Source: Minisyncoccia bacterium
GTDB lineage: Bacteria; Patescibacteriota; Minisyncoccia; Phycocordibacterales; PALSA-1337
Direction: 5' to 3'
Length of the DNA: 64,000 bases
Assembly: GCA_049997795.1 (NCBI GenBank)
Contig: JBEKVT010000002.1
Location: 65,664-129,663, forward strand
Positions 2,767 through 64,000 of the stretch are shown here, piece by piece. The position numbers and the translations under genes were made by a program. The notes below the pieces were generated by a model. The model was not told the origin of the DNA. It saw only the letters and a program-made list of their open reading frames with translations, and searched no databases. The first letter of the stretch is position 1; each line of letters opens with the position of its first letter.

Positions 2767-2782
2767 GCCGTCTTTCGCCTTG

Positions 2783-2856
2783 TGGACCCGAGCGGAATCG
2801 AACCGCTGACCTCCGCTTTGCAAAAGCGGCGCTCTAGCCGACTGAGCTACGGGCCC
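2783..2856 (-). tRNA. tRNA-Ala (anticodon TGC)
   Basis: The reverse complement GGGCCCGTAGCTCAGTCGGCTAGAGCGCCGCTTTTGCAAAGCGGAGGTCAGCGGTTCGATTCCGCTCGGGTCCA folds as a cloverleaf. It has a G3:U70 pair and anticodon loop TTTGCAA. CCA is not encoded. Confidence 0.85.
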
Positions 2857-2937
2857 TTGGTCTATGGACTTCGGAACGATTTGGATTATACTCAATCTCG
2901 GACAATAAAACCAACGACAGGATAGAAAGGAGAGCGC

Positions 2938-3429
2938 ATGAAAACGATTTGTTTGTGCCTGGTTTTCCTGTGTGCCCTCCCGGTTTTCGGCGAAGGGGCA
3001 CGGACGCCGACTAATTTTCTGGCGAATATCTACCATTGGGGCGACAAATCCACGGAAGTTCCGCCCGGAACCGTGGCCATGCAGCCGTTCAACGTCTCGG
3101 CGACCAAGATCGAGTCTGATGCCGTCTCTAAGGAAATGGACCAGTTGTTCGGTTATCACCCGGCCGACGATGAAGGAGAGGGGGGCTTGGCCAATCGATC
3201 GCTGCCGTCGTTCAGCCAGAATGAACCGGTGCTGGATGACATCGTCGACAGTTTGACGGTCCTTTCGAGGGACATCGCCCTGAAGTATCGCGGGGGAGTG
3301 AAGATCTCCCCGCGGGTCACCCTCTTTTTCAAGGGCGGCCTGTTCTGGAAGGTGAACGACAAGTATTCGATCGGCATCAGATCATTCGACTTCGGCGTCA
3401 AGGGCCTGGTCGTGAGGATCACCTGGTAG
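2938..3429 (+). CDS. Small secreted hypothetical protein (N-terminal signal peptide)
   Basis: An AAAGGAG Shine-Dalgarno lies 7 nt upstream. The N-terminus MKTICLCLVFLCALPVFGEGA is a hydrophobic signal peptide. It is the first gene of the surface-protein island. Confidence 0.6.
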   Translation: MKTICLCLVFLCALPVFGEGARTPTNFLANIYHWGDKSTEVPPGTVAMQPFNVSATKIESDAVSKEMDQLFGYHPADDEGEGGLANRSLPSFSQNEPVLDDIVDSLTVLSRDIALKYRGGVKISPRVTLFFKGGLFWKVNDKYSIGIRSFDFGVKGLVVRITW

Positions 3430-3534
3430 GTCAAGCTCCGGACAGTCGGAGCTTTTTTGTCGAAGCCGTCGTCTTCGTCGACATCATCTAGGCCTTCTTC
3501 GTCTTCGCCGCTTTCGCCATGCTATAATTTCCAC

Positions 3535-6500
3535 ATGGGAATCTTTAACCGCTTCTCTTTTCGTGGCTCCCAAAAAAATCTCATTCTGGCCGGCGCAGTC
3601 ATGGCGCTCGTGATCGCCGTATTTTTTGTTTTTCGCCCACAGCTTGGTGAGGCGAGTGTTGCGACTTCTTCTCAAGCCACGAATGGACAAGGCGCGACGG
3701 TGTCCGGAACCGTGGCTGGAGAAGGCGGCACGTCGCTCCGGATGCGATACAAAAACGCGTGGATCACTGAGCAGGCGACCAACACGCGCAGGGGAAGGCT
3801 GGTCACGATATCGGCCCAGAATGAGGACCGGGATCATCCTCTCGTCGATGTGATCGCTTCCACCACGATCCCGAAGATATTCAAAGTGGGGGACGAGAGC
3901 AAGATACGGGTCAGATGGAGGGATAACGGCGATCAGGATGTCTCTTTCCGCGCCTACGACACGGACCACGACGGCTACATCGACCGCCTAGAGTGGACGG
4001 TCCCTCATTTGTCGGACGAGACGTACGAGATCATATTCATCTCCAAGGCGTTTCAGCTCGACTCTAACCAGAATGTCATAGCCGACATATATCCCCAGGT
4101 CGAGGCCAAAGACGGCAACTGGGCGACGATCAATGACGGCCAATACGTGAGAGCCACCTTCAACCAGGTGCTGGACGATTCGAAGGATATCACCGTCTAC
4201 GCCAGACCGACGGATCAGAGCCAACCGGCAGGGATACAGGTCTATCCCGTGTACACTGACCAGAATGGCAACCAGACCGAAGGATCGCAGATCGCCGCCT
4301 TCCCGGCGATAGACCATGAGGGTACTTACAGGATCCTGCTCACCGGACTTCCGACGCCGACCGGCGTCTTCGACCTGAAGATCGCCGGCAGCGTCGCCAT
4401 CGATTGGATCGTCGACCCTCCGGGCTGGCTCTCCGGCTGGTCATACAGGAAGAAGGTAACGATATCGAACACCAATGTGGGCTCCTCTGATCTTCCGTAT
4501 TTCCCTCTGCTCGTGAATATAGCCGAGACCGGAGGCGGTTCGACCAACATCGGATATAACCTGAGCGACAAGACCAATGGCTACGACATCAGGTTCACGG
4601 ATTCGAGCGGAACGAGCCTGCTCCCATACGAAAGGGAAGCCTTGAGCGTCGCTTCGAATAACCTCACGGCCAAACTTTGGGTCCAAGTCCCGACCGTGAA
4701 CCACCTGACCACCACGGATATCTATATCTATTACGGCAATTCCGGCCAGTCAGGGAGCGACTGGACGGCCACGACTGGCTCCGGCAACTGCAGCACCATG
4801 ACAGAAGCCAAATGCACGTGGAAAGAAGGCTCTTCGCAGAACTACGACGCCGTCTGGCATTTCAAGGAAACGGGGACTAACCCGACGATCCACGACTCGA
4901 CCGCTAAAGCAAACGACAGCACGGTCCAGACATGGACGCCTACGAGTGGGCCGGTCGACGGAGCGGGAGGCGATGACGGCAGCAAATGGGTCGAATTCAA
5001 TGGGAGCACCGTATTTCTGACCGCCACAAACGCTCATACATCCTCCTTTTGGGTCAATGTCACGAGCTATGATACCGGAGGCCATACTTACCCGACCATA
5101 TTGAACCTCAAGACGGATATCGACTATTACGCGGTCTATCTGAGCGACGTATCCGGATACGAGGGTATCAGCGCGAGCACGGTCGGGATAAATGGGTGGA
5201 GAGCTTCGGGAACGAGCGCAGCCTTAATCGGCTCCTGGAATTATATAACCGTGGTCTTCGACGGGGTGGACAGGACTAATGTGAATTCCTGGAAGATCTA
5301 TGTTAACGGCGTCTCCAAATCGCTGACGACGGCGGGAGGATGGAACACTATATCGGACAACATAATCTACACCGACGACAAATCCACCGCGGACACGCTT
5401 TATGGCACCATCGACGAATTGCGAGTCGCGTCTATCGCTCGCTCTGTCGGCTGGATAAATTTCGAATATTGCAACATGATGTCGACCGCGAGCGGGACTT
5501 GCAGCGGGACGAACGAGCTCACCTTCGGCAGCCAAGACACGGGCGGCACGGACAGATACTGGATCGGCGGTACCGGCAACTGGTCGGATACCAGCCATTG
5601 GGCGAACGCGTCCGGCGGGGGAGGGGGATACAGCGTTCCAGACTCGACCACCAACGTGCACTTCGATTCCGCTTCCGGAGGAGGAACCGCGACTGTGGAT
5701 GTCGCGGCTTCCGCGGCGAATTTCACGATGGATACCGGGAACACGACCAACGTCACCCTAGGGAATACCTTGACCGCCTCGGGCAATTTTACGATAACGG
5801 CCGGCACCTTCGATGTCTCCTCCGGAAATTATGCCCTGAGCGTCGCAGGTAATTGGTCCAATGCCGGGACTTTCACGGCAAGATCAGGCACAACGACTTT
5901 TAGCGGCGCCGCTGCCGAGACGCTCGCCGGCTCGATGGTGGGTGGGAACGCGTTTAACAACATCGCTTTTAGCGGGGCCGGCACTAAATCCTTTTCGAAC
6001 AACGCCTCGACGACCAATGTGACCATCCAGGCCGGTTCGGGAGCGGTGACGGCTCCGTCCGGGCTCTGGTCCGTATCCGGCTACTGGAACAACGGCGCCA
6101 CCTTCTCGCAGACCGCCGGAACGGTCGATTTCAACTCATCGGGACCGCAATCGATCTCTGGCTCTAATACCTGGTTCGGCCTGTCGGTCTCCGGCACGAC
6201 CGCCCGCACTGTATCGTTCCAGAGCGGGGCCATCCAGACAATATCCGGGAACGGCTCACTGACGTTCATGGGAGCACCGAGCCAGACGCTCTTGCTCTCG
6301 CCGATCACTCCAGGGAGCGCCTGGAAATTGGCCGTGTCGACAACCAACGTGACCCAATCGGTCACTTACACCTCGCCGTCATACTCGGACGCGTCGGGCT
6401 CGTCGAACTACAACCAGACGGTGTACGCGACTGGCGCTGGAGACAGCGACGGCGGCAACAACACGAACTGGTCATTCGGCGTATATTCGGTCACGATAAC

Positions 6501-6873
6501 GAGCAGCGGGGTCATCTCGTACGGCTATGTGACCTTGAGCACCTCATCGACGACCCTGGGCAGCGCCTACACCCAGGTCGCGAAGAATGACGGTGCCGTG
6601 AACGAAAGATTGAACGTCAAATCGAGCGACGCCACCGGCGGAACAGGATGGACGCTCGCTTCAATCATAGGGACGAACCAGTACACCCACGAATTTTCCA
6701 CGACTACGGGATCGACCTGGACGCTCCTGCCGGACAGCTCGACCTATGTCACCGCCGACCCGGCCGTCGCGCCGAGCGGGACGACGAATTTCGATTTCCG
6801 GGTGACAGTGCCCAGCACGTCGGATTACCAGCAAAAATCCATCACTATCACCATCCAAGCGGCTGCGCCATGA
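3535..6873 (+). CDS. Giant cell-surface protein (about 1112 aa). It has an N-terminal signal anchor, a DUF2341-like region, a concanavalin/LamG-like region, a Gly/Thr/Ser/Asn-rich repetitive beta-rich region and a C-terminal WxL-type cell-wall-binding domain (CscC-like).
   Basis: The start ATG at 3535 lies 6 nt after TGCTATAAT (3520-3528), so the mRNA is leaderless; the ORF track extends it upstream to 3457. Motifs: DWIVDPPGWLSGWSYRKKVTI...PYFPLL (DUF2341-like). The C-terminus carries VKSSDATGGTGWTLAS...GSTWTLLPD...ITITIQAAAP (two W-T-L motifs). Confidence 0.7.
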   Translation: MGIFNRFSFRGSQKNLILAGAVMALVIAVFFVFRPQLGEASVATSSQATNGQGATVSGTVAGEGGTSLRMRYKNAWITEQATNTRRGRLVTISAQNEDRDHPLVDVIASTTIPKIFKVGDESKIRVRWRDNGDQDVSFRAYDTDHDGYIDRLEWTVPHLSDETYEIIFISKAFQLDSNQNVIADIYPQVEAKDGNWATINDGQYVRATFNQVLDDSKDITVYARPTDQSQPAGIQVYPVYTDQNGNQTEGSQIAAFPAIDHEGTYRILLTGLPTPTGVFDLKIAGSVAIDWIVDPPGWLSGWSYRKKVTISNTNVGSSDLPYFPLLVNIAETGGGSTNIGYNLSDKTNGYDIRFTDSSGTSLLPYEREALSVASNNLTAKLWVQVPTVNHLTTTDIYIYYGNSGQSGSDWTATTGSGNCSTMTEAKCTWKEGSSQNYDAVWHFKETGTNPTIHDSTAKANDSTVQTWTPTSGPVDGAGGDDGSKWVEFNGSTVFLTATNAHTSSFWVNVTSYDTGGHTYPTILNLKTDIDYYAVYLSDVSGYEGISASTVGINGWRASGTSAALIGSWNYITVVFDGVDRTNVNSWKIYVNGVSKSLTTAGGWNTISDNIIYTDDKSTADTLYGTIDELRVASIARSVGWINFEYCNMMSTASGTCSGTNELTFGSQDTGGTDRYWIGGTGNWSDTSHWANASGGGGGYSVPDSTTNVHFDSASGGGTATVDVAASAANFTMDTGNTTNVTLGNTLTASGNFTITAGTFDVSSGNYALSVAGNWSNAGTFTARSGTTTFSGAAAETLAGSMVGGNAFNNIAFSGAGTKSFSNNASTTNVTIQAGSGAVTAPSGLWSVSGYWNNGATFSQTAGTVDFNSSGPQSISGSNTWFGLSVSGTTARTVSFQSGAIQTISGNGSLTFMGAPSQTLLLSPITPGSAWKLAVSTTNVTQSVTYTSPSYSDASGSSNYNQTVYATGAGDSDGGNNTNWSFGVYSVTITSSGVISYGYVTLSTSSTTLGSAYTQVAKNDGAVNERLNVKSSDATGGTGWTLASIIGTNQYTHEFSTTTGSTWTLLPDSSTYVTADPAVAPSGTTNFDFRVTVPSTSDYQQKSITITIQAAAP

Positions 6874-6994
6874 TCGTCATGAGAACAGGTATGTGGATAT
6901 CTTCTCGTTATCATATGATCCCCGGATAAGCTATACTGTATGCGCGTTACAGGGATACTATATTTATTCGATCGATTAATACAAAACATAATAT

Positions 6995-7534
6995 ATGAAA
7001 CAGGATTCTCTTTTGTCTCATAAGACGTCCCAGTCTTGGCATTATGCCCTGGCGTCCCTCGTGGCCCTGGCTCTTCTCTCATGGAATATCGCCATGGCTG
7101 GTAGCACGGCCACCGTCGCGGCGACGGTCACCGCGCAGCTCTTAAACATCTCCGTCGCGCCCGGGACCATCGCTTATGGCTCGGTTCCGCTGAATACGGC
7201 TACCACCACGGTGAACCACGGCTATCAGCAGACAGTGACAAACAGCGGTTCGACTATCCAGCTCAACGTGAAGTCGAGCGACGCGACCAATGGAACGTCG
7301 TGGACGCTTGCTTCTTCCCCGGGATCCGACACATACGAGCATCAGGTCTCCACGACGACAGGATCGACCTATATGATAATGCCGAACAGCTCGACCTATA
7401 TCACCGCCTCATCGACCATGACGACCGGCGTGACCAATACGCAGAAGCTGGACTTCCAGCTGACTACGCCGACCGCCTCGACGGATTTCCTCCAAAAGTC
7501 GATCACTATCACGGTCCAAGCGGCCGCTATCTAG
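6995..7534 (+). CDS. Small secreted WxL-domain protein (CscB-like), paralogous to the C-terminal domain of the upstream giant protein
   Basis: Signal peptide WHYALASLVALALLSWNIAMA. Residues LNVKSSDATNGTSWTLASSPG...FLQKSITITVQAAAI align nearly position-for-position with the last ~110 aa of the 3535-6873 protein. Confidence 0.65.
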   Translation: MKQDSLLSHKTSQSWHYALASLVALALLSWNIAMAGSTATVAATVTAQLLNISVAPGTIAYGSVPLNTATTTVNHGYQQTVTNSGSTIQLNVKSSDATNGTSWTLASSPGSDTYEHQVSTTTGSTYMIMPNSSTYITASSTMTTGVTNTQKLDFQLTTPTASTDFLQKSITITVQAAAI

Positions 7535-7600
7535 GACATTCGTTTGGAGAATATCGCATGCTCCATATCGCGGCTGTCCGTATCGTAATGCCATAAAAAA

Positions 7601-8221
7601 ATGAAACCATCCAAGCGCGTCGCAATATTCTCTTTTGTTCTGTCGGCATTCCTCCTGCTCAGTGCTTTCTTGACAGCTTCCTATGCGGAGGCGAGGATCG
7701 GCGTGGGCATGGGCTCGAGCGAGATACGCATAACTGACTCGGTGAAACCCGGCGGCATATACAAGCTCCCGACCCTGCGCATCTTCAATACGGGCGACGA
7801 GACGACTACCTACGGCATGGACGTCAGCTATCACGAGGATTACAAACAGATCCGGCCGGCGCCGGGATGGTTCACTTTCAGTCCCACCACCTTCACTCTC
7901 GATGCCGGGAAAAGCCAGGACGTCTCGATCACCATGGTCGTTCCCGTCAAGGCGGTACCGGGCGATTATTTCGCTTTCCTCGAGGGCGGTCCGGTCTCGA
8001 GCAACAAGCCCGGCACCACCGTCGGCGTGGCCGTCGCGGCAAAATTGTTCTTCACCGTGGCGCCCGCGAACATCTTCCAGGCAGCCTTATATAGGATATC
8101 TTCGTTCTTCTCGGCATACTCGCCGTGGACATGGATAGTCTTGGGCCTCGTCCTGTGCGCCGTCGTCGTGTATCTATTCAGGAGATTCTTCTCGCTAAGC
8201 TTTGCCGTGCGGAAGAGATAG
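7601..8221 (+). CDS. CscA-like surface protein: signal peptide, beta-sandwich ectodomain, C-terminal TM anchor and a basic tail (DUF916/DUF3324-type architecture)
   Basis: N-terminal signal MKPSKRVAIFSFVLSAFLLLSAFLTASYA. Ectodomain motif FSPTTFTLDAGKSQDVSITMVVP...PGDYFAFLEG. C-terminal TM WIVLGLVLCAVVVYLF followed by RRFFSLSFAVRKR. Confidence 0.45.
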   Translation: MKPSKRVAIFSFVLSAFLLLSAFLTASYAEARIGVGMGSSEIRITDSVKPGGIYKLPTLRIFNTGDETTTYGMDVSYHEDYKQIRPAPGWFTFSPTTFTLDAGKSQDVSITMVVPVKAVPGDYFAFLEGGPVSSNKPGTTVGVAVAAKLFFTVAPANIFQAALYRISSFFSAYSPWTWIVLGLVLCAVVVYLFRRFFSLSFAVRKR

Positions 8222-8227
8222 AAAAAA

Positions 8228-9208
8228 GTGGCCAACAAGAACCTGCGCATCGCGCTAGTCTCTGCCTTAACGGTCAGTGCCGTACTTTTCGCGGGGAAGG
8301 CCCTTGCGGTCGACATCACTGCCACAGTAAGTCTGGGCGTTTTCGTCCCAGGCCAACCATCCAATCTGGCGGCGACCATCGGAGACAAGAGCGTCGAGCT
8401 GTCGTGGTCGCCGCCGTCGAACGGCGGATCGGCCATAACCGATTATATAGTCGAATACAGGCTCTCGTTGGGCGGCAGCTGGTCTTCGTTCGATGTCGGT
8501 TCCGGCGGTGATACGTCGGCGACCTTGACCGGCTTGTCCAACGATAATTCATACGACTTTCGCGTCTCCGCCGTAAACGCCATAGGCCAGGGTCCGCCAT
8601 CGCCTGTAGTGAGCGCCACGCCCGGACCGCCCGCTCAGGTCATCGTCCAGAGCTTCCTCGATCTCTATGTGCCGAGCATAGGGACGAATGTGCGCATAAC
8701 TAACGAAGGGCTGACAGCTTATGAATACAACTATACTTGGTGCGTGACCGACTCAGACACGAACCTGTGCGGCGGAGGCGACGATGTCTTCGACTCTACG
8801 GCCGCCAAATGGATCGATCCAGGACAGAACTACGATACGACGTTGAATTCCACCGTACCGTCTCCGGGGAACTATTGGTTCCATGTCGCCGTGCAGTACG
8901 GCTCTGACTCCTCGCAAGCAAGCCAGTCTTTTACAGCTGTTACGGAAACCACGCCTCCGCCGCCACCGCCACCACCGGGTGGTGGAGGGGGCGGCGGAAG
9001 TGGAGGAGCTCCGGCTTGCGTCGGCGCAGATTTCAACCATGACGGCAGGGTGGATTCGGTGGATTTCTCGATAATGCTCGCCTACTGGGGAACTTCCGGA
9101 CCGATCAATAATCCTTGCGTGGACATAAACGGCGACAAAAAGATCGATTCCGTGGACTTCTCGATCCTGCTCTACCAATGGGGCAGGAGCCCTATCCCTT
9201 TTAAATAG
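8228..9208 (+). CDS. Secreted protein with a fibronectin type III domain, a Pro/Gly linker and a C-terminal dockerin-like double calcium-binding repeat
   Basis: GTG start with a signal peptide. FN3 signature SVELSWSPPSNGGSAITDYIVEYR...YDFRVSAVNAIG. Linker PPPPPPPPGGGGGGGSGG. Dockerin repeats DFNHDGRVDSVDFSIMLAYWG and DINGDKKIDSVDFSILLYQWG. Confidence 0.6.
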   Translation: MANKNLRIALVSALTVSAVLFAGKALAVDITATVSLGVFVPGQPSNLAATIGDKSVELSWSPPSNGGSAITDYIVEYRLSLGGSWSSFDVGSGGDTSATLTGLSNDNSYDFRVSAVNAIGQGPPSPVVSATPGPPAQVIVQSFLDLYVPSIGTNVRITNEGLTAYEYNYTWCVTDSDTNLCGGGDDVFDSTAAKWIDPGQNYDTTLNSTVPSPGNYWFHVAVQYGSDSSQASQSFTAVTETTPPPPPPPPGGGGGGGSGGAPACVGADFNHDGRVDSVDFSIMLAYWGTSGPINNPCVDINGDKKIDSVDFSILLYQWGRSPIPFK

Positions 9209-9214
9209 AACGCC

Positions 9215-10099
9215 ATGCGCAGGATATCTTTATCGGATCTGATATTCGGGATAGCGATCGGATCTTTGGCGCTCTTGCCGCGCGGCGTATCTGCTGCAGA
9301 GTTGAGCTTCAAACTGATCTCTGATGATGCCGCCGGCAACGGAGCGGCCGTCGTCGAGGCCCGTATCGACTCACAAGAGAAGGACATAAACGCGATCGAC
9401 GGCATAATCAGCCTCGTGGGCACGGGAAAGACGGATATATCGTCGGTCGGGATAGAGACCGGAGGGTCGGTATTGACGTTCTGGCCGGTCCCGCCGCAGT
9501 ATTCTCCGACCGAAAAAGTCATCCGCTTCACCGGGGGAGTGCCGAACGGCTTCGATCGCGAGGGACCTCTCTTCCGCATGCATATCTTCACGTCCTCGCC
9601 TGGCGACGTGACCATCTCGTGGATCGGCGGCTCCGCCTATCTTAATGACGGCAAGGGCACTAGAGAGGGCATATACGCCAAATCCATCGTTGTGTCACTC
9701 GCCCCGCAAAACCAGAGCACATCTAACGGGTATTCTTACGACAAGACGCCGCCGAATTTCGATTCTGTCCTCGTCGGACGAGATCCGAACACGTACGGCG
9801 GAAGATATTTCGTGAGCTTCCACGCGATCGACGACATCTCCGGCGTAGCCCGATACGAAGTCAGGGAAGGACAGGCCGTGACGAGCGTCGCGAACGGAGT
9901 CTATGTGTTCAAAGACCAGACCATGGCGACGCCGGTCTTCATCACGGCGTATGATCAGGCGGGGAACAGCAAGACGGTGACCGTCGGATCGCCATCCAAC
10001 CGGCCGAAAGACATCATGATTACGGCATTATTCGCGGTCATCCTAATCATCCTTTTCGCCGTATTCAGATACGGACATAAAAGAGCCGCCAAGAGATAG
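9215..10099 (+). CDS. Membrane-anchored surface protein with an N-terminal cohesin-like beta-sandwich module (a putative anchoring scaffoldin)
   Basis: Signal peptide, then AVVEARIDSQEKDINAIDGIISLVGTGKTDISSVGIETGGSVLTFW...GPLFRMHIFTSSPGDVTISWIGGSAYLND, which resembles the cohesin fold pattern. C-terminal TM IMITALFAVILIILFAVF plus a basic tail. Confidence 0.4.
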   Translation: MRRISLSDLIFGIAIGSLALLPRGVSAAELSFKLISDDAAGNGAAVVEARIDSQEKDINAIDGIISLVGTGKTDISSVGIETGGSVLTFWPVPPQYSPTEKVIRFTGGVPNGFDREGPLFRMHIFTSSPGDVTISWIGGSAYLNDGKGTREGIYAKSIVVSLAPQNQSTSNGYSYDKTPPNFDSVLVGRDPNTYGGRYFVSFHAIDDISGVARYEVREGQAVTSVANGVYVFKDQTMATPVFITAYDQAGNSKTVTVGSPSNRPKDIMITALFAVILIILFAVFRYGHKRAAKR

Positions 10100-10182
10100 G
10101 ATAGCGGAGCTTTCGGTGGCGTCGTGATCGTAAACGATCACGACATCCTACCGAAATATAGTCACTTCGTTCCTTATTTCGG

Positions 10183-10253
10183 TGGACCTAGGGGGAGTCG
10201 AACCCCCGCCTCGGCAATGCGAATGCCGCGTAATACCACTTTACTATAGGCCC
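10183..10253 (-). tRNA. tRNA-Ala (anticodon CGC)
   Basis: The reverse complement GGGCCTATAGTAAAGTGGTATTACGCGGCATTCGCATTGCCGAGGCGGGGGTTCGACTCCCCCTAGGTCCA has a G3:U70 pair, anticodon loop TTCGCAT and T-loop TTCGACT. Confidence 0.75.
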
Positions 10254-10371
10254 CAGCGAGGTGCGAAATGAATATACCATGTCCATTCCGTCCGAGCGAC
10301 AGGCCTATATGAGCTAAGCGATCATAGGCCCGGCCGCCGCCTGCGGGTGCTTCTTGGCGGCTCTTTCAATG

Positions 10372-10442
10372 TCGGGGCGCCGAGAATCGAACTCGGACCT
10401 CACGCACCCGAAGCGTGTATACTACCACTATACTACGCCCCG
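10372..10442 (-). tRNA. tRNA-Pro (anticodon CGG)
   Basis: The reverse complement CGGGGCGTAGTATAGTGGTAGTATACACGCTTCGGGTGCGTGAGGTCCGAGTTCGATTCTCGGCGCCCCGA has C1:G72 (a Pro hallmark), anticodon loop TTCGGGT with G37, and T-loop TTCGATT. Confidence 0.75.
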
Positions 10443-10444
10443 TG

Positions 10445-10517
10445 TGGACCATACCGGACTCGAACCGGTCACCTCACCCATGCCATGGGTGCGCTCTACC
10501 AGATGAGCTAATGGCCC
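10445..10517 (-). tRNA. tRNA-Ala (anticodon GGC)
   Basis: The reverse complement GGGCCATTAGCTCATCTGGTAGAGCGCACCCATGGCATGGGTGAGGTGACCGGTTCGAGTCCGGTATGGTCCA has G3:U70 and anticodon loop ATGGCAT. Confidence 0.8.
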
Positions 10518-10608
10518 GTCATTCTGGCGCCTCCACTCTATCATAATTTGATGATTTTTCAAGAATGCCGTAAGCTTGGGGACGTGCCGACCGATCGGCT
10601 CGCGATTC

Positions 10609-10682
10609 CGGGCTGTAGTATAGTGGTAGTATACATCCATGGGGTGGATGCGGTCCGGGTTCGATTCCCGGCAGCCCGACCA
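10609..10682 (+). tRNA. tRNA-Pro (anticodon GGG), 3' CCA encoded
   Basis: CGGGCTGTAGTATAGTGGTAGTATACATCCATGGGGTGGATGCGGTCCGGGTTCGATTCCCGGCAGCCCGACCA has C1:G72 and anticodon loop ATGGGGT with G37. Confidence 0.8.
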
Positions 10683-10708
10683 GTGCGATTCGTTGGCGTG
10701 AATTATCA

Positions 10709-10782
10709 GCACCCTTAGCTCAGTCGGCTAGAGCGCGCCCTTCACACGGGCGAGGTCGCAGGTTCGAGCCCTGCAGGGTGCA
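10709..10782 (+). tRNA. tRNA-Val (anticodon CAC)
   Basis: GCACCCTTAGCTCAGTCGGCTAGAGCGCGCCCTTCACACGGGCGAGGTCGCAGGTTCGAGCCCTGCAGGGTGCA has anticodon loop TTCACAC. Confidence 0.85.
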
Positions 10783-10805
10783 CAACAAAAATAGGGGGAA
10801 ATAAA

Positions 10806-59018: not shown

Positions 59019-60623
59019 CTATACCTTCCCGAACGGTTCGATCTCGACGATGAAGGTGGCGCCCTTCCCTTCCCCGGCCGACTCGGCGCGGATCGTGCCG
59101 TGGTGGGCCTCCACCAGCTGTTTGGCCACGAAAAGGCCGAGGCCGGTGCCTTTGATGTTGACCTTCGAGGCGTTCTCGGCCCGGGAGAATTTCTGGAAGA
59201 GGTGCGGCAGGACTTTCGGGTCGATGCCGACGCCGGTGTCCTTGACGGCGAAGACGAAGAGGTGCCGCGGCCGGTCGAAGGCGAGAGTCACGGCGACCGA
59301 GCCGGACGGCGTGTATTTCATGGAATTGTCGATCAGGTTGGCGATGACCTGTTTGAATTTATCGCGGTCGGCGGTGATGCGGTAATCGATGTTGCTGTCC
59401 TCGGCGGTGAAGGAGAACTTGAGGCCGGCCTTCTCGATGTTCGGCTGGAGCTCGGCGATGACGTCTTCGATCAAGGTCTTCAGGTCAATGGTCTCGAAGT
59501 TGTACTTCATGGTGCCGAGTTCGATCCTGGAGACGTTCAGATAGTCATCGACGATGCTGACCAGGGTGTTGGTCGAATCGAAGATGTGCCGGATGCCGTC
59601 AAGGGCTTGCCGGCCGAGCTCCCCCATGTCGCCCTCAAGAAGGAGCGAGGCGTAGCCTTTCATGGCCGAGAGAGGGGCCCGCAGCTGATGCGTGGCGAAG
59701 GATATGAACTCCGACTTCTGCCGGTCCAGCTCCGTCAGCCGCTCGTTCGCCTTCTCCAGGTCATCCGCCAGCTTTTGGATGCGCTCGCGTTGAAGAACTT
59801 CTTTAATAACACTTCGAATTAAGAAAACACCCGTAATTATGACTAAAACAAAAAGAATCCCGTTTATAATAATATCTTCGAATGAAATCGAAAGCAGTGT
59901 CCTGACAAAGATAAAAATGGAAAGTGCAAAGACCAACAATTCGGTTGCGATAACCTTTATGTTCAAAAAGTGTAGTTTCAATATTGCATAAGCCGTGAAG
60001 CCGACAAATAAAATCAAGCTTGGCGCATCAAGGAGGGTAAAGTCAAAAACATTAAAATATACAGGCAATATAACGCTGAATGATAGAGCTGCAAGGCTAT
60101 AAGATGAAACCCCAAGAAGGATGAACCTTAATTGTAATTTTGATATTCCTGTAGCCTTCTTTTGGGCTTGATATATAAGATAAATAAACGAACAGATGTA
60201 AAGCAGAAAATACAGCGCGTATATTGTGAAGAATGGCCCTAAATGACCTTGATAACCTAGCACGGTCAGACGATCAATTCCACTGACAACATATCCGTCT
60301 AAATAACAAATAGCGAAGAGGAAAATGCTGGGTATAAAAATGCCTATTTTTTGCCACAGTGGAATTCTTTTTAAATCAATGTTACATATTTCAAGAATCC
60401 AGATTAGGCCGGTTAGTGGTACAAGTGTCGTAAACGCATAACTGCTTCGTAGAATAATCAGGGTTGGGTAGAATCTGAACAAATAATCAAATATGATGGA
60501 AATGACTGTGCTAAGACTAAATACAGCAAAACCATAATTTAATCTTTCATTCGGTTTTCGTAACCAGACTATCAACCCAAGAAAAAGGTTGAGTATCCCG
60601 GATAATAAGATAATGACAGACAT
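59019..60623 (-). CDS. Sensor histidine kinase with an N-terminal polytopic (7TM-receptor-type, HisKA_7TM-like) sensor domain. The sensor part is AT-rich and the kinase core GC-rich.
   Basis: About 8 TM helices over the first ~270 aa, then a coiled-coil linker (QRERIQKLADDLEKANERL), an H-box FATHQLRAPLSAMKGY, an N-box LIDNSMKYT, G1 VKDTGVGID and G2 GTGLGLFVAKQLV. The nucleotide composition switches near 59800. Confidence 0.85.
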   Translation of the reverse strand: MSVIILLSGILNLFLGLIVWLRKPNERLNYGFAVFSLSTVISIIFDYLFRFYPTLIILRSSYAFTTLVPLTGLIWILEICNIDLKRIPLWQKIGIFIPSIFLFAICYLDGYVVSGIDRLTVLGYQGHLGPFFTIYALYFLLYICSFIYLIYQAQKKATGISKLQLRFILLGVSSYSLAALSFSVILPVYFNVFDFTLLDAPSLILFVGFTAYAILKLHFLNIKVIATELLVFALSIFIFVRTLLSISFEDIIINGILFVLVIITGVFLIRSVIKEVLQRERIQKLADDLEKANERLTELDRQKSEFISFATHQLRAPLSAMKGYASLLLEGDMGELGRQALDGIRHIFDSTNTLVSIVDDYLNVSRIELGTMKYNFETIDLKTLIEDVIAELQPNIEKAGLKFSFTAEDSNIDYRITADRDKFKQVIANLIDNSMKYTPSGSVAVTLAFDRPRHLFVFAVKDTGVGIDPKVLPHLFQKFSRAENASKVNIKGTGLGLFVAKQLVEAHHGTIRAESAGEGKGATFIVEIEPFGKV

Positions 60624-60626
60624 GAT

Positions 60627-61697
60627 TTATACAGATATAAATTTATTAACAAAATTCCTTCCTAGTATATTCCCCATAATATCCCCAGACGTCTCTCCGT
60701 TATTGCATTTCTTCGCGGCCAGATATACACATCCTATGTTGTAAGCAATTCTATTGTACAGGGCATCCGATCCAAAGATAAGTTTTGAGCTTGGTATTAT
60801 ATTAAGAGTTCTTGAAATGACTGACGTGGACACGCCTGAGGTATCGAAAAACAGATTGCTGTATTTATCACTCAGTTTCTTTATCAAACGATAATCAATG
60901 TTAACCATACCGTAATGACCTATGTGGGCAATAATGACCTTTATGTCATAAGCGCTCAGAAGTTCACTGGCTCCATCTTTATCACAGAAATTTTCTAGTA
61001 AACCATTTGTCCTACTTCGTTCGATATAACCGTATTTCCTGTTTATCTTAAGGGTATAATTTGAAATGCCGCCGTGGAACAAAACATAAAGTTTGTATTT
61101 GGCGGCAGTCTCGTATATCTTGCGGAGTTTTTTTGCAATCTCATCGCCGTTTTTATATGGTTCTGGTTTGAAATTCTGAAGATTGGGGTGAAATTTAAGT
61201 CCAACAATATGGTAATTATCTACATACGACTTTATGGTGGATTCGATTTCTGAAAGATTGATGTTGTGGATGTCGACGGAACCAAGAAGCATAAATCTAG
61301 TATCCTGAGAATATTTTTTACCGACGTTTTCTGTCGGCGCCCATGGGTCGAGAGACAAAAGAATGCTTTTATCGGCTAGTGATGCTTCCATTTCTTCAAG
61401 GATTCGATCAGCATTAGTTTTTTTGTAAGTATGCTCAATCATAGAGAACACACTCCTAGGAAAAAGTTTAAAGTACAATCGTGATCCTATCTTTTCAAGT
61501 TTACTGTAATTAAATTTTTCTAAAATTCCTGGGCTCAAATAATCTTCGTGGCAGCATTCATCGACAATTTCTTCATAATGGACAACGCCCATAACGTCAA
61601 TCGGGTGAATGTGAGTGTCAATGATCCGAAAACTTAAATCATTTTTTAGTTTTCGTACATCTTTTAGGACCTCTATAATTTGTCTTTTGTACATCAA
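60627..61697 (-). CDS. Metal-dependent amidohydrolase-2-family (TIM-barrel) hydrolase
   Basis: IIDTHIHP (HxH metal ligands), FHGG, AHIGH and FGSDA. It lies 3 nt from the sensor-kinase gene and overlaps the upstream gene by 4 nt. Confidence 0.65.
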   Translation of the reverse strand: MMYKRQIIEVLKDVRKLKNDLSFRIIDTHIHPIDVMGVVHYEEIVDECCHEDYLSPGILEKFNYSKLEKIGSRLYFKLFPRSVFSMIEHTYKKTNADRILEEMEASLADKSILLSLDPWAPTENVGKKYSQDTRFMLLGSVDIHNINLSEIESTIKSYVDNYHIVGLKFHPNLQNFKPEPYKNGDEIAKKLRKIYETAAKYKLYVLFHGGISNYTLKINRKYGYIERSRTNGLLENFCDKDGASELLSAYDIKVIIAHIGHYGMVNIDYRLIKKLSDKYSNLFFDTSGVSTSVISRTLNIIPSSKLIFGSDALYNRIAYNIGCVYLAAKKCNNGETSGDIMGNILGRNFVNKFISV

Positions 61698-62908
61698 AAT
61701 CCTATTTCGCTTTTAATTTCTTTTAGATTTTCAATCAGGACGTTAATCTGTTCCTTTGTGTGTGCGGTTGACACGGTCGTGCGCAGGCGAGCCTTGCCTT
61801 TCGGTACGGCCGGCCAACGAGCTGCAGGAATGAAGATGCCGCGCTCCAGGAGCTTGACGCTGGCATCCATAGCCTTTTTCTCATTTCCTATAAAAATGGG
61901 TATTATCTGCGTTCTAGAATTGAGGAAATTGATTCCGATATTCGCTAATTGGTCTTTCATATATAGCGCATTGGCAAGTACTTTCTCTCTCCTCCAGGTC
62001 TCCTCGGTTGCGATCTCGATCGACTTAATCAGACCACAGACCACCGGGGGCGCGATCGGCGCCGTGAAGATGAATGAGTCAGAAGTTATTTTGAGATAAT
62101 CGACCAAATCTTTTGAACCAACCACGAAACCACCGACCCCGCCAAAACATTTGGTGAATGTCCCCATAATCACATCGACTTGCCCTTCAACGTTGTAGTA
62201 GTCTTCGACTCCTCGGCCGTGCGGGCCAAGGATGCCAGTGCCGTGAGCATCATCGAGATAAACGATCGCTTTGTATTGTCTCGCTTGTTCAAGTATCTGG
62301 GGTAGCGGAGCGATGTCGCCATCCATACTAAAAACTCCGTCCGTCACAATCATCTTTCTTTGGGATACGGGATAATTCTTCAGTTTTTCCAGTAAGTCAT
62401 TAATGTCCAAATGCTTGTAGATCTCTTTCTTCGCACCGCTCAATCGTATACCGGCGATGGCACTCGCGTGATTGTACTCATCGCTGAAGATAATTGTGTC
62501 TTTATCTTTCGCGATTTTTTCGCTGAAGAGCGACGCCAGAGAAAATTTCGGGACATTGACTAATGCCGGGATGGTGCCGGAGTTTGCCATGTATCCAGAG
62601 ACGAACGACACTGCCGCTTCCCTGTGTTTGAACGCAGCGATTTTTTCTTCCAACTGATTATGAATCTCAAGATTGCCGGTCAGGAGACGGGCGCTGCCAT
62701 TACCGATACCCCATTTCCTTGCTCCTTGAACAGCCGCCTCGATAACACGTGGATCTGTCATCAAATCCAAATAATTATTAGTCGCGAACATTAAGACCTT
62801 TTTTCCGTTGACTACAACTTCTGGAGCATGCGGCGAAGATACTACGGGCGGGTACGGGTAAAAACCATGTTTCTTAATGAAATTTACCGCTTGAGAAAGA
62901 CTTTTCAT
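61694..62908 (-). CDS. PLP-dependent alpha-oxoamine synthase family enzyme (BioF / Kbl / serine palmitoyltransferase / CqsA-type)
   Basis: Fold-type I PLP enzyme. DDAHGTGILGPHGRG and GTFTKCFGGVGGFVVG (PLP lysine in TFTK). The length of about 404 aa is typical for this family. Confidence 0.8.
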   Translation of the reverse strand: MKSLSQAVNFIKKHGFYPYPPVVSSPHAPEVVVNGKKVLMFATNNYLDLMTDPRVIEAAVQGARKWGIGNGSARLLTGNLEIHNQLEEKIAAFKHREAAVSFVSGYMANSGTIPALVNVPKFSLASLFSEKIAKDKDTIIFSDEYNHASAIAGIRLSGAKKEIYKHLDINDLLEKLKNYPVSQRKMIVTDGVFSMDGDIAPLPQILEQARQYKAIVYLDDAHGTGILGPHGRGVEDYYNVEGQVDVIMGTFTKCFGGVGGFVVGSKDLVDYLKITSDSFIFTAPIAPPVVCGLIKSIEIATEETWRREKVLANALYMKDQLANIGINFLNSRTQIIPIFIGNEKKAMDASVKLLERGIFIPAARWPAVPKGKARLRTTVSTAHTKEQINVLIENLKEIKSEIGF

Positions 62909-63022
62909 GACTTCATTTTAACATTATCTGGTAATTTTTGCGTGTTGGATATGTGGGTAGAAATCTTATAGATGACGCGCGTAACAGATTTCTGAATTAC
63001 CTTGGTACCTTATCTTGATATA

Positions 63023-64000
63023 ATGAACGGCGTGGTTATATCAGCATATGTTGTAATCATCTGGACTGCTGCTGTACTTATTGGCAGTCTAGCTCTAGTT
63101 ATATTTCTAGGTAACAACAAACCTTCTTCGAGGGCTTTCGCCTTTACTATATCCATAGTCACCTTGTGGACAATGAGTGTTGGGCTTTTTACAGCTTCAA
63201 GGGATCCGAATCTTGCTGAATTTTGTATAAAGATGAATTTTTTCCTTGGGAGCGCTATAGCCTCATCATTTTTATATTTTTTCTTCACATTTCCTTACGA
63301 CAAAAGGCCTAACCATAAACTTGCCTTGTCTCTTGTAATGCTCCAACTTATTTTCTTATATTTATATTTTTTTACGAATATCATTGTATATGGACCAGTC
63401 CCATTAACAAATCCTTCTTCTGCTATTTGGTGGGGATGGGGATTGGGTCCAGGATATTTTGTATATAACCTATTCTTTTTCGGTTTTTTCTTGACCGGAA
63501 TCGTACTCTTATATCATAGATACCGTTTAACCAAAGATTATTCTCAAAAGAATAATCTAAAATACATGTTGTCAACAGTGATTATAGGCCTAATCCCGCC
63601 AACGCTTTTTAATCTAATTTTACCTCCATTAGGATATTTTGGTCTTAATTGGGTTGGACCAGCCAGTGGTATGTTCTGGGTACCGATTATGGCCTATTCC
63701 ATCATCCGTTATCATCAAATGAATGTACGGGTGGTGGTTACAGAGGTGCTGGCCATCGGTATGGCGTTCATTTTCTTCATGGACATCTTTATCACGATGT
63801 CGTTCGGTATTTGGGGGCGTATCGGTACCTTCGGGGCTTTCCTTGTTTTGAGCGCATATTTGATTCGCGGTGTTCTCCGGGAAGCTAAGCAGAGAGAACA
63901 GCTCGACGATCTAAACCGAAATCTCGAGCAGAAAGTCGCCGATCAGACGGTGGAGATCAGGAAGTCGTACGAAGCAGAGAAACATGCCCGCGCGGAATTG
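63023..64000 (+). CDS. Second sensor histidine kinase-like protein, 5' part only (runs off the window). It has a polytopic 7TM-type sensor domain paralogous to that of 59019-60623.
   Basis: An open frame from ATG 63023 with no stop before the window end. The start codon is uncertain because the -10-like TATAAT (63019-63024) overlaps this ATG. LVIFLGNNKPSSRAFAFTISIV resembles LIVWLRKPNERLNYGFAVFSLS of the first kinase. After the last TM helix the sequence becomes GC-rich and enters a coiled-coil linker (REAKQREQLDDLNRNLEQKVADQ). Confidence 0.6.
   Translation, partial: MNGVVISAYVVIIWTAAVLIGSLALVIFLGNNKPSSRAFAFTISIVTLWTMSVGLFTASRDPNLAEFCIKMNFFLGSAIASSFLYFFFTFPYDKRPNHKLALSLVMLQLIFLYLYFFTNIIVYGPVPLTNPSSAIWWGWGLGPGYFVYNLFFFGFFLTGIVLLYHRYRLTKDYSQKNNLKYMLSTVIIGLIPPTLFNLILPPLGYFGLNWVGPASGMFWVPIMAYSIIRYHQMNVRVVVTEVLAIGMAFIFFMDIFITMSFGIWGRIGTFGAFLVLSAYLIRGVLREAKQREQLDDLNRNLEQKVADQTVEIRKSYEAEKHARAEL

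Follow-up and report, generated by a model that had tools for sequence, protein, structure and literature searches.

What is the block of cell-surface genes that lies between tRNA genes in a Minisyncoccia bacterium, a member of the Patescibacteria? The block is part of a 64,000-nt stretch of contig JBEKVT010000002.1 (positions 65,664 to 129,663; this whole stretch is called the window, and coordinates count from its first nucleotide). An earlier note, made from the letters of the window, had read it as a WxL/CscA-type adhesion system of the kind described from Firmicutes, acquired horizontally at a tRNA-bounded site. Our analysis gives a different answer. The block is very probably a conserved Patescibacteria operon for surface assembly that is neither a member of the WxL/CscA families nor an island. 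As to what the operon builds, we put at about even the chance that five of its genes, g2 to g6 (3535–10099), encode a Patescibacteria surface fibre held together by donor-strand complementation without an outer-membrane usher, a reading drawn from sequence.

ARAGORN and Rfam agree on six tRNAs, and between the solitary tRNA-Ala(tgc) and the cluster of the other five lie six open reading frames (ORFs), g1 to g6, all in the same direction (Table 1). Every one of the six products has an N-terminal hydrophobic signal or anchor segment, to which g4 and g6 add a C-terminal transmembrane (TM) helix with basic residues; the tRNA-flanked, co-directional layout and the export or anchoring signals described in the earlier note were thus recovered in full. 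Gaps of 6 bp separate g5 from g4 on one side and from g6 on the other. One domain is common to g2 (residues 992–1111) and g3 (residues 57–178), with 53% identity (E 1e-32), and the family profile matches g2 from position 54 of 177 to the last residue. An exhaustive search for this domain family returned 924 clusters at 50% identity, in which the domain either stands alone, in proteins of ~165–180 amino acids (aa), or occupies the extreme C terminus of proteins of 300–2100 aa; no other placement was seen, and in every large protein the domain ends 0–3 residues from the C terminus. Among 36 large proteins, the residue corresponding to W1039 of g2 is invariant and that corresponding to W1062 is at least 90% conserved.

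By hidden Markov model searches with PF13731, PF06030, and PF11797, none of these proteins belongs to the WxL or CscA families. Because single sequences can miss divergent domains, the Pfam scan was extended to family members. At E ≤ 1, WxL (PF13731) matched neither g2 nor g3, nor any of 42 close g3 homologues and 52 divergent small members; a further 35 large proteins gave no match at E ≤ 1e-4. DUF916 (PF06030) and DUF3324 (PF11797) were found neither in g4 (E ≤ 1) nor in 39 g4 homologues (E ≤ 0.1), and no such Pfam annotation occurs among 240 listed relatives. In an E ≤ 1 scan, the significant Pfam and NCBIfam matches in the six proteins were DUF2341 in g2 and fn3 and Dockerin_1 in g5. The dimensions differ as well. 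A WxL domain has 160–190 aa and two W-x-L motifs ~68 (large) or ~106 (small) residues apart (PMC9772566), whereas the family domain here has ~125–140 aa and its second tryptophan follows the first by 23 residues (W1039 and W1062 of g2). Of the two motifs, the first (W103-x-L105 in g3) varies little or not at all, whereas most Parcubacteria-type small subunits have lost the second tryptophan, which is tyrosine in their consensus. WxLIP/CscA proteins are 337–365 aa long, with two tandem immunoglobulin (Ig)-like domains, a C-terminal TM helix, and an NQIDKxxxYFDLK motif (PMC10599100); g4, with 206 aa, has the C-terminal TM helix and basic tail, a single β-sandwich, and no NQIDKxxxYFDLK. What does resemble WxL systems is the arrangement, with the domain alone in small proteins and C-terminal in large ones that carry N-terminal binding modules. 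Measured against the WxL-cluster definition of Hassan et al. 2023, the arrangement of g2, g3, and g4 is analogous, and none of the three is in the defining families. Of the two WxL-type domains and the CscA-type protein claimed earlier, the repeated domain and the β-sandwich with its TM helix and basic tail are real, and the labels find no support in sequence. By sequence, the system appears to fall into none of the curated families.

Related loci were collected from neighbourhoods in public assemblies; scanning a single genome for each GTDB species yielded 39 species-level loci. At most of them the order is large protein ending in the domain, small protein, and g4, followed in Parcubacteria-type loci by g5-like and g6-like genes; identity across cassette loci is 35–70%, and the small subunit and g4 are conserved at 50–70% identity across candidate classes. 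Homologues were found in Patescibacteria and in a few metagenome-assembled genomes (MAGs) labelled Dehalococcoidia, Planctomycetota, or Gammaproteobacteria; none came from Firmicutes. The GC content is 0.56–0.58 in the block and its flanks alike, the flanks hold housekeeping genes (UvrC-like, D-Ala-D-Ala ligase, G6PD, and YchF), and neither an integrase nor any direct repeat that stems from a tRNA end occurs in block or flanks. Related loci have other flanks, such as a resistance-nodulation-division pump or, in a different genome, type IV pilus genes, and tRNAs are absent from most of them and differ in identity where present, so the cassette is widespread without consistently lying between the same tRNAs. 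Since the composition, integrase, and attachment-repeat tests are negative and the cassette recurs at 39 loci with differing flanks, the block is a vertically inherited lineage feature of Patescibacteria and not an acquired island. The idea of a Firmicutes adhesion island inserted at a tRNA can draw on the tRNA genes on both sides and on g1 and the N-terminal payload of g2, which are the only genome-specific parts among the sampled loci; given the composition, the housekeeping flanks, and the distribution, we consider it hardly credible. The cluster and the analogy in the earlier note thus hold, and its family assignment and horizontal transfer do not.

Some of the taxonomic labels deserve comment. 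Four loci in MAGs labelled Dehalococcoidia (L044, on the 2.64-Mb contig CBDFJL010000003.1; L040, on a 748-kb contig; L039; and L045) contain a core trio of a large protein ending in the domain, g4, and a secreted protein that starts with the strand motif described below. Because the Dehalococcoidia-labelled contigs are too large for genomes of the candidate phyla radiation (CPR), the system may extend to Chloroflexota. The Gammaproteobacteria and Planctomycetota labels (L025, L030, L035, and L041) look like binning or taxonomy artefacts.

The large proteins vary in front of the domain. The payload of g2 comprises DUF2341, a weak ConA/neurotoxin-like region, and T/G/N-rich repeats, and its N-terminal body has no counterpart in the 39 related loci. 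Across the family, large-protein payloads include DUF2341 (as in g2), ConA-like Laminin_G_3, MAM, BNR, PATR, propellers, and FN3. Judged from these matches, the payloads look adhesin- or lectin-like and differ by lineage, and g2 is a candidate tip adhesin whose C-terminal domain is a candidate strand acceptor. An EF-hand/dockerin-like calcium-binding loop, DTDHDGYIDRLEW, lies at g2 residues 137–154 (3943–3996), where EF-hand models match below threshold (best E 2.3e-4). The paralogy of g2 and g3 is visible even in DNA, at 74–82% identity over stretches of 50–86 nt (6613–6866 against 7265–7527). This is high for paralogues with ancient orthologues and suggests gene conversion between the putative tip and shaft genes within this genome. 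At a Kaiserbacteria locus (L001, CP064968.1, 3608–9917), the large-protein gene is tandemly duplicated in near-identical repeats of ~2.9 kb; the two ORFs, of 1135 and 1014 aa, have the same propeller-like body, and the family domain stands at the end of the second copy only, a pattern suggesting either that this adhesin locus was recently duplicated or recombined or that the assembly has collapsed there.

Small and large proteins also differ in what precedes the domain. In every lineage, mature small subunits begin with a strand T-x-T-V-x-A-T-V-T-A, of which A43, T44, V45, and A47 of g3 are invariant or nearly so, whereas homology in the large proteins begins past this strand, at a median profile position of 49 and often just after a Pro-rich linker. 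The mature N terminus of g5-like proteins reads A-x-I-x-A-T-[IV]-x, both in those with an FN3-type middle part and in those with a Cys-rich one; an acceptor domain is absent from either type. We scored the motif [ILV]xA[TS][ILV][TSKQRN] just behind the signal segment and found it in 32/35 small subunits and 20/26 g5 proteins (with two unrelated types of middle domain), as against 1/27 large proteins, 0/42 g4 proteins, 2/44 g6 proteins, and 12/305 other signal-bearing ORFs. Two of these last 12 are g3 and g5 of the window, counted twice; nine are the gene after g4 at loci without a recognised g5, and one lies beside a large protein. With cassette genes excluded, the motif occurs in 0 of ~293 unrelated signal-bearing ORFs. 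The strand is therefore asymmetrically distributed and specific to the cassette, in which three classes are apparent from sequence: acceptor-only (the large proteins), donor-plus-acceptor (the small ones), and donor-only (the gene after g4).

Foldseek searches with the AlphaFold2 model of g4 (pLDDT 82; β-sandwich at residues 40–153, amphipathic helix at 158–172, then the TM helix and basic tail) returned PapD-like, ASH, and MSP domains and the chaperones FaeE, Caf1M, CfaA, DraB, and FimC at E 6e-6 to 3e-4 (FaeE 3e-5, Caf1M 1e-4, FimC 2.7e-4). The solved WxLIP falls in the same E range as the fimbrial chaperones, so g4 does resemble WxLIP in fold; as an argument for the CscA-like architecture claimed earlier, however, the match is unspecific, with PapD-like, MSP, and ASH domains and fimbrial chaperones scoring equal or better. 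PapD_N matches 15/40 g4-family members weakly (best E 2.2e-5), and the Joint Genome Institute (JGI) pipeline names a g4-type protein 'P pilus assembly chaperone PapD'. On the strength of the Foldseek neighbours, the weak PapD_N matches, and the JGI name, the modelled g4 belongs to the PapD-like fold class, as a member with a single domain and a membrane anchor; WxLIP appears to belong there too. Across about 400 relatives the family keeps one Ig-like domain and a constant length of ~200 aa, and a search with a profile of its most divergent orthologues stopped short of two-domain chaperones, of WxLIP, and of named Saccharimonadia proteins. Behind the signal peptide of g4 lies an invariant glycine-alternating strand with the family consensus [KR][IV]GVG[MV]GxGxI. 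We take g4 as a candidate chaperone or assembly factor.

In g3, a signal peptide (residues 1–35) precedes the family domain (residues 49–179), and the mature part of ~14 kDa has no cysteine; the protein is a candidate major or polymerising subunit. All 173 of its homologues at 50–70% identity are from Patescibacteria, and 0/173 has a Pfam domain; ten divergent cluster members that were looked up bear only the names 'Nealsonbacteria' and 'Patescibacteria group'. As a monomer, g3 is modelled poorly by AlphaFold2 (pLDDT 51.5), with the lowest values (28–35) over the conserved residues 35–76, which is compatible with, and no proof of, a strand that docks in another subunit. The g3-family profiles matched nothing at E ≤ 10 among PDB sequences, a set that we assume to include the WxL-bearing entry 9i25, and three g3/g4 alignments used as profiles likewise gave nothing relevant at E ≤ 10. 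Two other fibre types were considered and rejected: a TasA/camelysin-type fibre, as Peptidase_M73 matched 1/43 members only (E 0.42), and a sortase pilus, as no LPXTG motif was found.

The last two genes encode a dockerin protein and a protein that may hold it. The signal peptide of g5 is followed by a strand resembling that of g3, an FN3 domain, an Ig-like middle domain, a Pro/Gly linker, and a type I dockerin; the family (acceptor) domain is absent, which makes g5 a candidate donor-only terminator or adaptor. Downstream, g6 has a signal peptide, a cohesin-like N-terminal domain (about residues 27–110), a region matching DUF7743, a TM helix, and a basic tail. Among 24 g6 orthologues, DUF7743 is found in 10 (best E 2.5e-7) and Cohesin (PF00963) in 3 (best E 0.0016). 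Searched against the PDB, the g6-family profile gave four matches, three of which, including the best, are Ruminococcus flavefaciens scaffoldin cohesins (E 0.015–0.075). The cohesin signal is weak but consistent, and it makes g6 a candidate anchor for g5. In many relatives a third downstream gene of ~580 aa follows (L003/L007 5194–6915, L009 6887–8653, L012 8925–10703, and ~10 other loci), whose product has a cohesin-like N terminus (weak PF00963), Big_13-like repeats, a TM segment, and a charged coiled-coil tail. The window lacks this gene, and its tRNA cluster comes directly after g6.

Table 1. Features of the tRNA-flanked block, in window coordinates; residue numbers refer to the encoded protein.
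Feature	Position	Strand	Details
tRNA-Ala(tgc)	2782–2856	-	ARAGORN and Rfam
g1	2938–3429	+	ORF, 163 aa
Intrinsic terminator	3433–3454		Strong; 9-bp stem and T-run, directly after g1
g2	3535–6873	+	1112 aa from ATG; upstream TTG at 3457 also open
g2 signal/anchor segment	3577–3633	+	Residues 15–33
g2 DUF2341	4576–4761	+	Residues 348–409; Pfam, E 1.4e-8
g2 C-terminal family domain	6499–6870	+	~124 aa, residues ~989–1112; W1039 (GWTL), W1062 (TWTL)
Promoter-like site TTATCA-18-TATACT	6908–6937	+	Consensus scan; 121-bp AT-rich g2–g3 spacer
g3	6995–7534	+	ORF, 179 aa
g3 conserved N-terminal strand	7100–7138	+	Residues G36–Q48, GSTATVAATVTAQ; start of mature protein; candidate donor strand
g4	7601–8221	+	ORF, 206 aa
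g4 glycine-alternating strand	7694–7726	+	Residues 32–42, RIGVGMGSSEI
g4 TM helix	8126–8188	+	Residues 176–196
g5	8228–9208	+	ORF, 326 aa
g5 N-terminal strand	8309–8341	+	Residues 28–38, VDITATVSLGV
g5 fn3	8354–8617	+	Residues 43–130; E 1e-16, above Pfam cut-off
g5 type I dockerin (Dockerin_1)	9029–9169	+	Residues 268–314; E 1.6e-9, above Pfam cut-off
g6	9215–10099	+	ORF, 294 aa
g6 DUF7743	9740–9985	+	Residues 176–257; E 2.5e-5, just under curated cut-off
g6 TM helix	10010–10066	+	Residues 266–284
Five-tRNA cluster	10181–10783		Ala(cgc), Pro(cgg), Ala(ggc) on -; Pro(ggg), Val(cac) on +; ARAGORN and Rfam

From the anatomy of these proteins we infer strand insertion, polymerisation, a chaperone role for g4, and a dockerin–cohesin tether, in the following scheme. 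All five proteins, g2 to g6, would be exported by Sec. Held in the membrane by its C-terminal helix, g4 would bind newly exported subunits through its PapD-like Ig domain. The C-terminal domain of the subunits, of ~125 aa, would be an incomplete β-sandwich, and the glycine-alternating N-terminal strand of g4 may take part in this interaction. Because g2 has the domain and no donor strand, it could act as an acceptor only and would sit at the distal tip, displaying its large, lineage-variable binding modules. Beneath the tip, g3 would polymerise head to tail into a shaft, since the N-terminal strand (TxTVxATVTA) and the domain are both present. With a donor-type strand and no acceptor domain, g5 would cap the proximal end, and its C-terminal dockerin would bind the cohesin-like domain of membrane-anchored g6, so that the fibre is tethered to the cell. 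Precedents for such strand complementation are the Pam pili of a CPR bacterium, described below, and the WxL clusters, in which a strand of WxLIP is predicted to complete the WxL sandwich (PMC10599100).

Several points weigh against a donor-strand fibre. The poor model of g3 may be due to a shallow, low-diversity alignment, and the common N-terminal motif might serve sorting or processing instead. In some large proteins, the domain is immediately preceded by a hydrophobic segment that resembles a strand (e.g., FAMVSFSWVE) and might be a donor of different sequence. Moreover, g4 has one Ig domain, against two in PapD, FimC, PamC/D (described below), and WxLIP, and the cohesin assignment of g6 lies under Pfam thresholds.

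Other readings of the same genes have to be weighed. The domain could be a non-covalent peptidoglycan anchor, functionally WxL-like and maybe a very distant homologue of WxL; g2 and g3 would then form a short complex on the wall, bound and stabilised by g4 in the manner of WxLIP, with no long polymer. PDB entry 9i25, which Foldseek brought up, holds a WxL domain bound to WxLIP, although a literature search found no paper describing 9i1y or 9i25. We judge such a wall platform unlikely. No member tested matches WxL, DUF916, or DUF3324, the family profiles reach nothing among PDB sequences at E ≤ 10 (9i25 being assumed included), and the tryptophan spacing, domain length, single Ig domain, and missing NQIDK of the proteins here, together with the want of an LPXTG partner, all depart from WxL systems; nor does a platform explain why g5 forms a donor-only class or why large proteins systematically lack the strand. 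It is also conceivable that two unrelated modules lie side by side, g2 to g4 being surface or S-layer-associated proteins with no role in assembly and g5 and g6 a cohesin–dockerin pair by which an FN3 protein is tied to the membrane. The signals for dockerin and cohesin do stand independently, and g5 and g6 are missing or different at Microgenomatia-type and Dehalococcoidia-labelled loci. The tight 6-bp spacing, the conserved order, and the restriction of the g3-type strand to g5 or the gene after g4, rather than to unrelated secreted proteins, make this separation improbable.

The remaining alternative lies closest to the proposed fibre. Cryo-electron microscopy of the Pam pili of Candidatus Mycosynbacter amalyticus, a CPR epibiont of the Saccharimonadia, has revealed donor-strand exchange, according to a 2026 preprint (bioRxiv 10.64898/2026.03.03.709456). 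Pam pilins are two-domain proteins of 38–55 kDa, with a nine-strand N-terminal domain, an inter-domain donor linker, a truncated Ig C-terminal domain, and paired cysteines; the chaperones PamC/D are two-domain and PapD/FimC-like with a C-terminal TM helix, and there is no usher. PamT is a small tip subunit without a donor strand, and PamR is a TM-anchored terminator that donates its N-terminal strand. The pam neighbourhood holds ATP synthase, CorB, and MFS genes, Paceibacteria and Parcubacteria are not mentioned in the main text, and the distribution is said to be underestimated by sequence searches, a Roizmanbacteria homologue having ~21% identity (bioRxiv 10.64898/2026.03.03.709456). The cassette could accordingly be a divergent pam operon, with g2/g3 orthologous to the C-terminal domain of the Pam pilin, g4 to PamC/D, and g5/g6 to PamR. 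The superphylum is the same, and so is the mechanistic class (membrane-anchored PapD-like protein, strand plus C-terminal domain, and N-terminal-strand terminator); the family described here also occurs in Roizmanbacteria (L033), and an underestimated distribution would leave room for such relatives. We nevertheless regard orthology with pam as unlikely, because every part is built differently. The small subunit is a single domain of ~14 kDa without cysteine (~165–180 aa including the signal peptide) rather than a two-domain, Cys-paired pilin, and against the two domains of PamC/D, g4 keeps to a single one across about 400 relatives. In place of the small PamT, the candidate for the tip is a large adhesin of several domains, and terminator and anchor are split between a dockerin protein and a cohesin-like TM protein rather than joined in the single PamR. 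The ATP synthase, CorB, and MFS neighbourhood is absent here, and the main host classes are Minisyncoccia, Paceibacteria, and many others.

Beside the cassette, the window holds several smaller features. Lying next to tRNA-Ala, ahead of the cassette, g1 encodes a secreted orphan that matches nothing in Pfam or NCBIfam (E ≤ 1) and has no counterpart at any related locus examined. We rejected g1 as a component of the surface system and do not count it to the block, because an intrinsic terminator follows it and counterparts are missing at related loci. A perfect TATAAT box stands 8 nt 5′ of the g2 ATG (3520–3534; GCTATAATTTCCAC-ATG), which argues against the TTG at 3457 as the start of g2 and raises the possibility that the g2 transcript is leaderless or has a very short leader. 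The promoter-like site in the g2–g3 spacer may serve the small subunit as an internal promoter; it is a lead only, as the overall count of such sites in the consensus scan does not exceed chance. The real compositional anomaly of the window lies elsewhere, at 59019–64000, where the GC content is 0.36–0.46 against ~0.57 in the rest. The region encodes an Amidohydro_2 protein (60627–61697, minus strand) and a class I/II aminotransferase of the AONS/KBL type (61694–62908, minus strand), adjoining a multi-TM sensor histidine kinase (59019–60623, minus strand), and a foreign origin is more plausible for it than for the surface-protein block.

Patescibacteria are obligate epibionts, and to our knowledge their attachment to hosts is largely unexplained apart from type IV pili and the Pam pili reported recently. 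The present cassette is widespread in many candidate classes and highly conserved, yet it escapes both Pfam and NCBIfam. Should it encode a fibre, host recognition would have its prime candidates in the N-terminal modules of the large protein, which vary by lineage. The donor/acceptor grammar and the dockerin–cohesin tether lead to directly testable predictions, and the small subunit and g4 would make good potential markers for the annotation of CPR genomes. That g4 is structurally akin to fimbrial chaperones as well as to WxLIP bears on the true nature of the poorly understood WxL clusters of Firmicutes. If the fibre is real and independent of Pam, then together with Pam and WxL/WxLIP it would suggest that a chaperone with strand-complemented subunits is an ancient principle of surface assembly in monoderm bacteria, of which the Gram-negative chaperone–usher pathway is one branch.

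How does the proposed fibre compare with known systems? With the Firmicutes WxL/Csc clusters, it has in common the cluster logic and the WxLIP fold neighbourhood of g4; it adds a donor-only dockerin protein and a cohesin-like anchor, has no LPXTG partner of the kind that those clusters often include, and occurs in another phylum. With cellulosomal cohesin–dockerin pairs, it shares a type I dockerin behind a Pro/Gly linker, in g5, and a cell-fixed, weakly cohesin-like partner, in g6. Unlike those pairs, it comes with no carbohydrate-active enzymes and sits in a fibre-type operon; its cohesin signal stays below curated thresholds, and g6 is held by a TM helix instead of SLH domains or a sortase.

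The likeness to chaperone–usher pili (Fim, Pap, Caf, Csu, and CFA/I) extends to several components. The PapD-like fold of their chaperone is found in g4; a binding module joined to a strand-less pilin-type domain, as in FimH and PapG, would make up the tip adhesin; an N-terminal strand plus the domain, as in FimA and PapA, would make up the polymerising subunit, an asymmetry that is present at the sequence level; and g5, which would donate and could not accept, is loosely comparable to PapH. In contrast, there is neither an usher nor an outer membrane, and no usher-sized β-barrel gene was seen in the cassette here or at the related loci inspected. Where a classical chaperone has two Ig domains (PF00345 and PF02753) and is soluble, g4 has a single one and is anchored in the membrane. 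Anchoring would be by dockerin and cohesin, and the pilin fold is putative here.

With Pam pili the cassette shares a CPR host, Sec-exported subunits, the want of an usher, and a PapD/FimC-like protein held by a C-terminal TM helix. It also has, as read here from genes alone, a conserved strand immediately N-terminal to the C-terminal pilin-type domain, a tip subunit without a donor strand, and a membrane-tethered proximal terminator that would donate its N-terminal strand. Pam pili belong to this mechanistic class and come from this superphylum, so the principle can no longer count as new. The best reading of the comparison is an usher-less, chaperone-assisted donor-strand fibre of the class recently recognised in CPR bacteria, one built differently from Pam: by the published description of Pam, the cassette is set apart in the architecture of every component, in its neighbourhood, and in its main host classes. 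Whether it amounts to a second such system of Patescibacteria, and possibly of some Chloroflexota, independent of Pam and marked by a donor/acceptor grammar, a single-domain, membrane-anchored PapD-like chaperone, and a dockerin–cohesin tether, is a more doubtful proposition, which we put forward tentatively.

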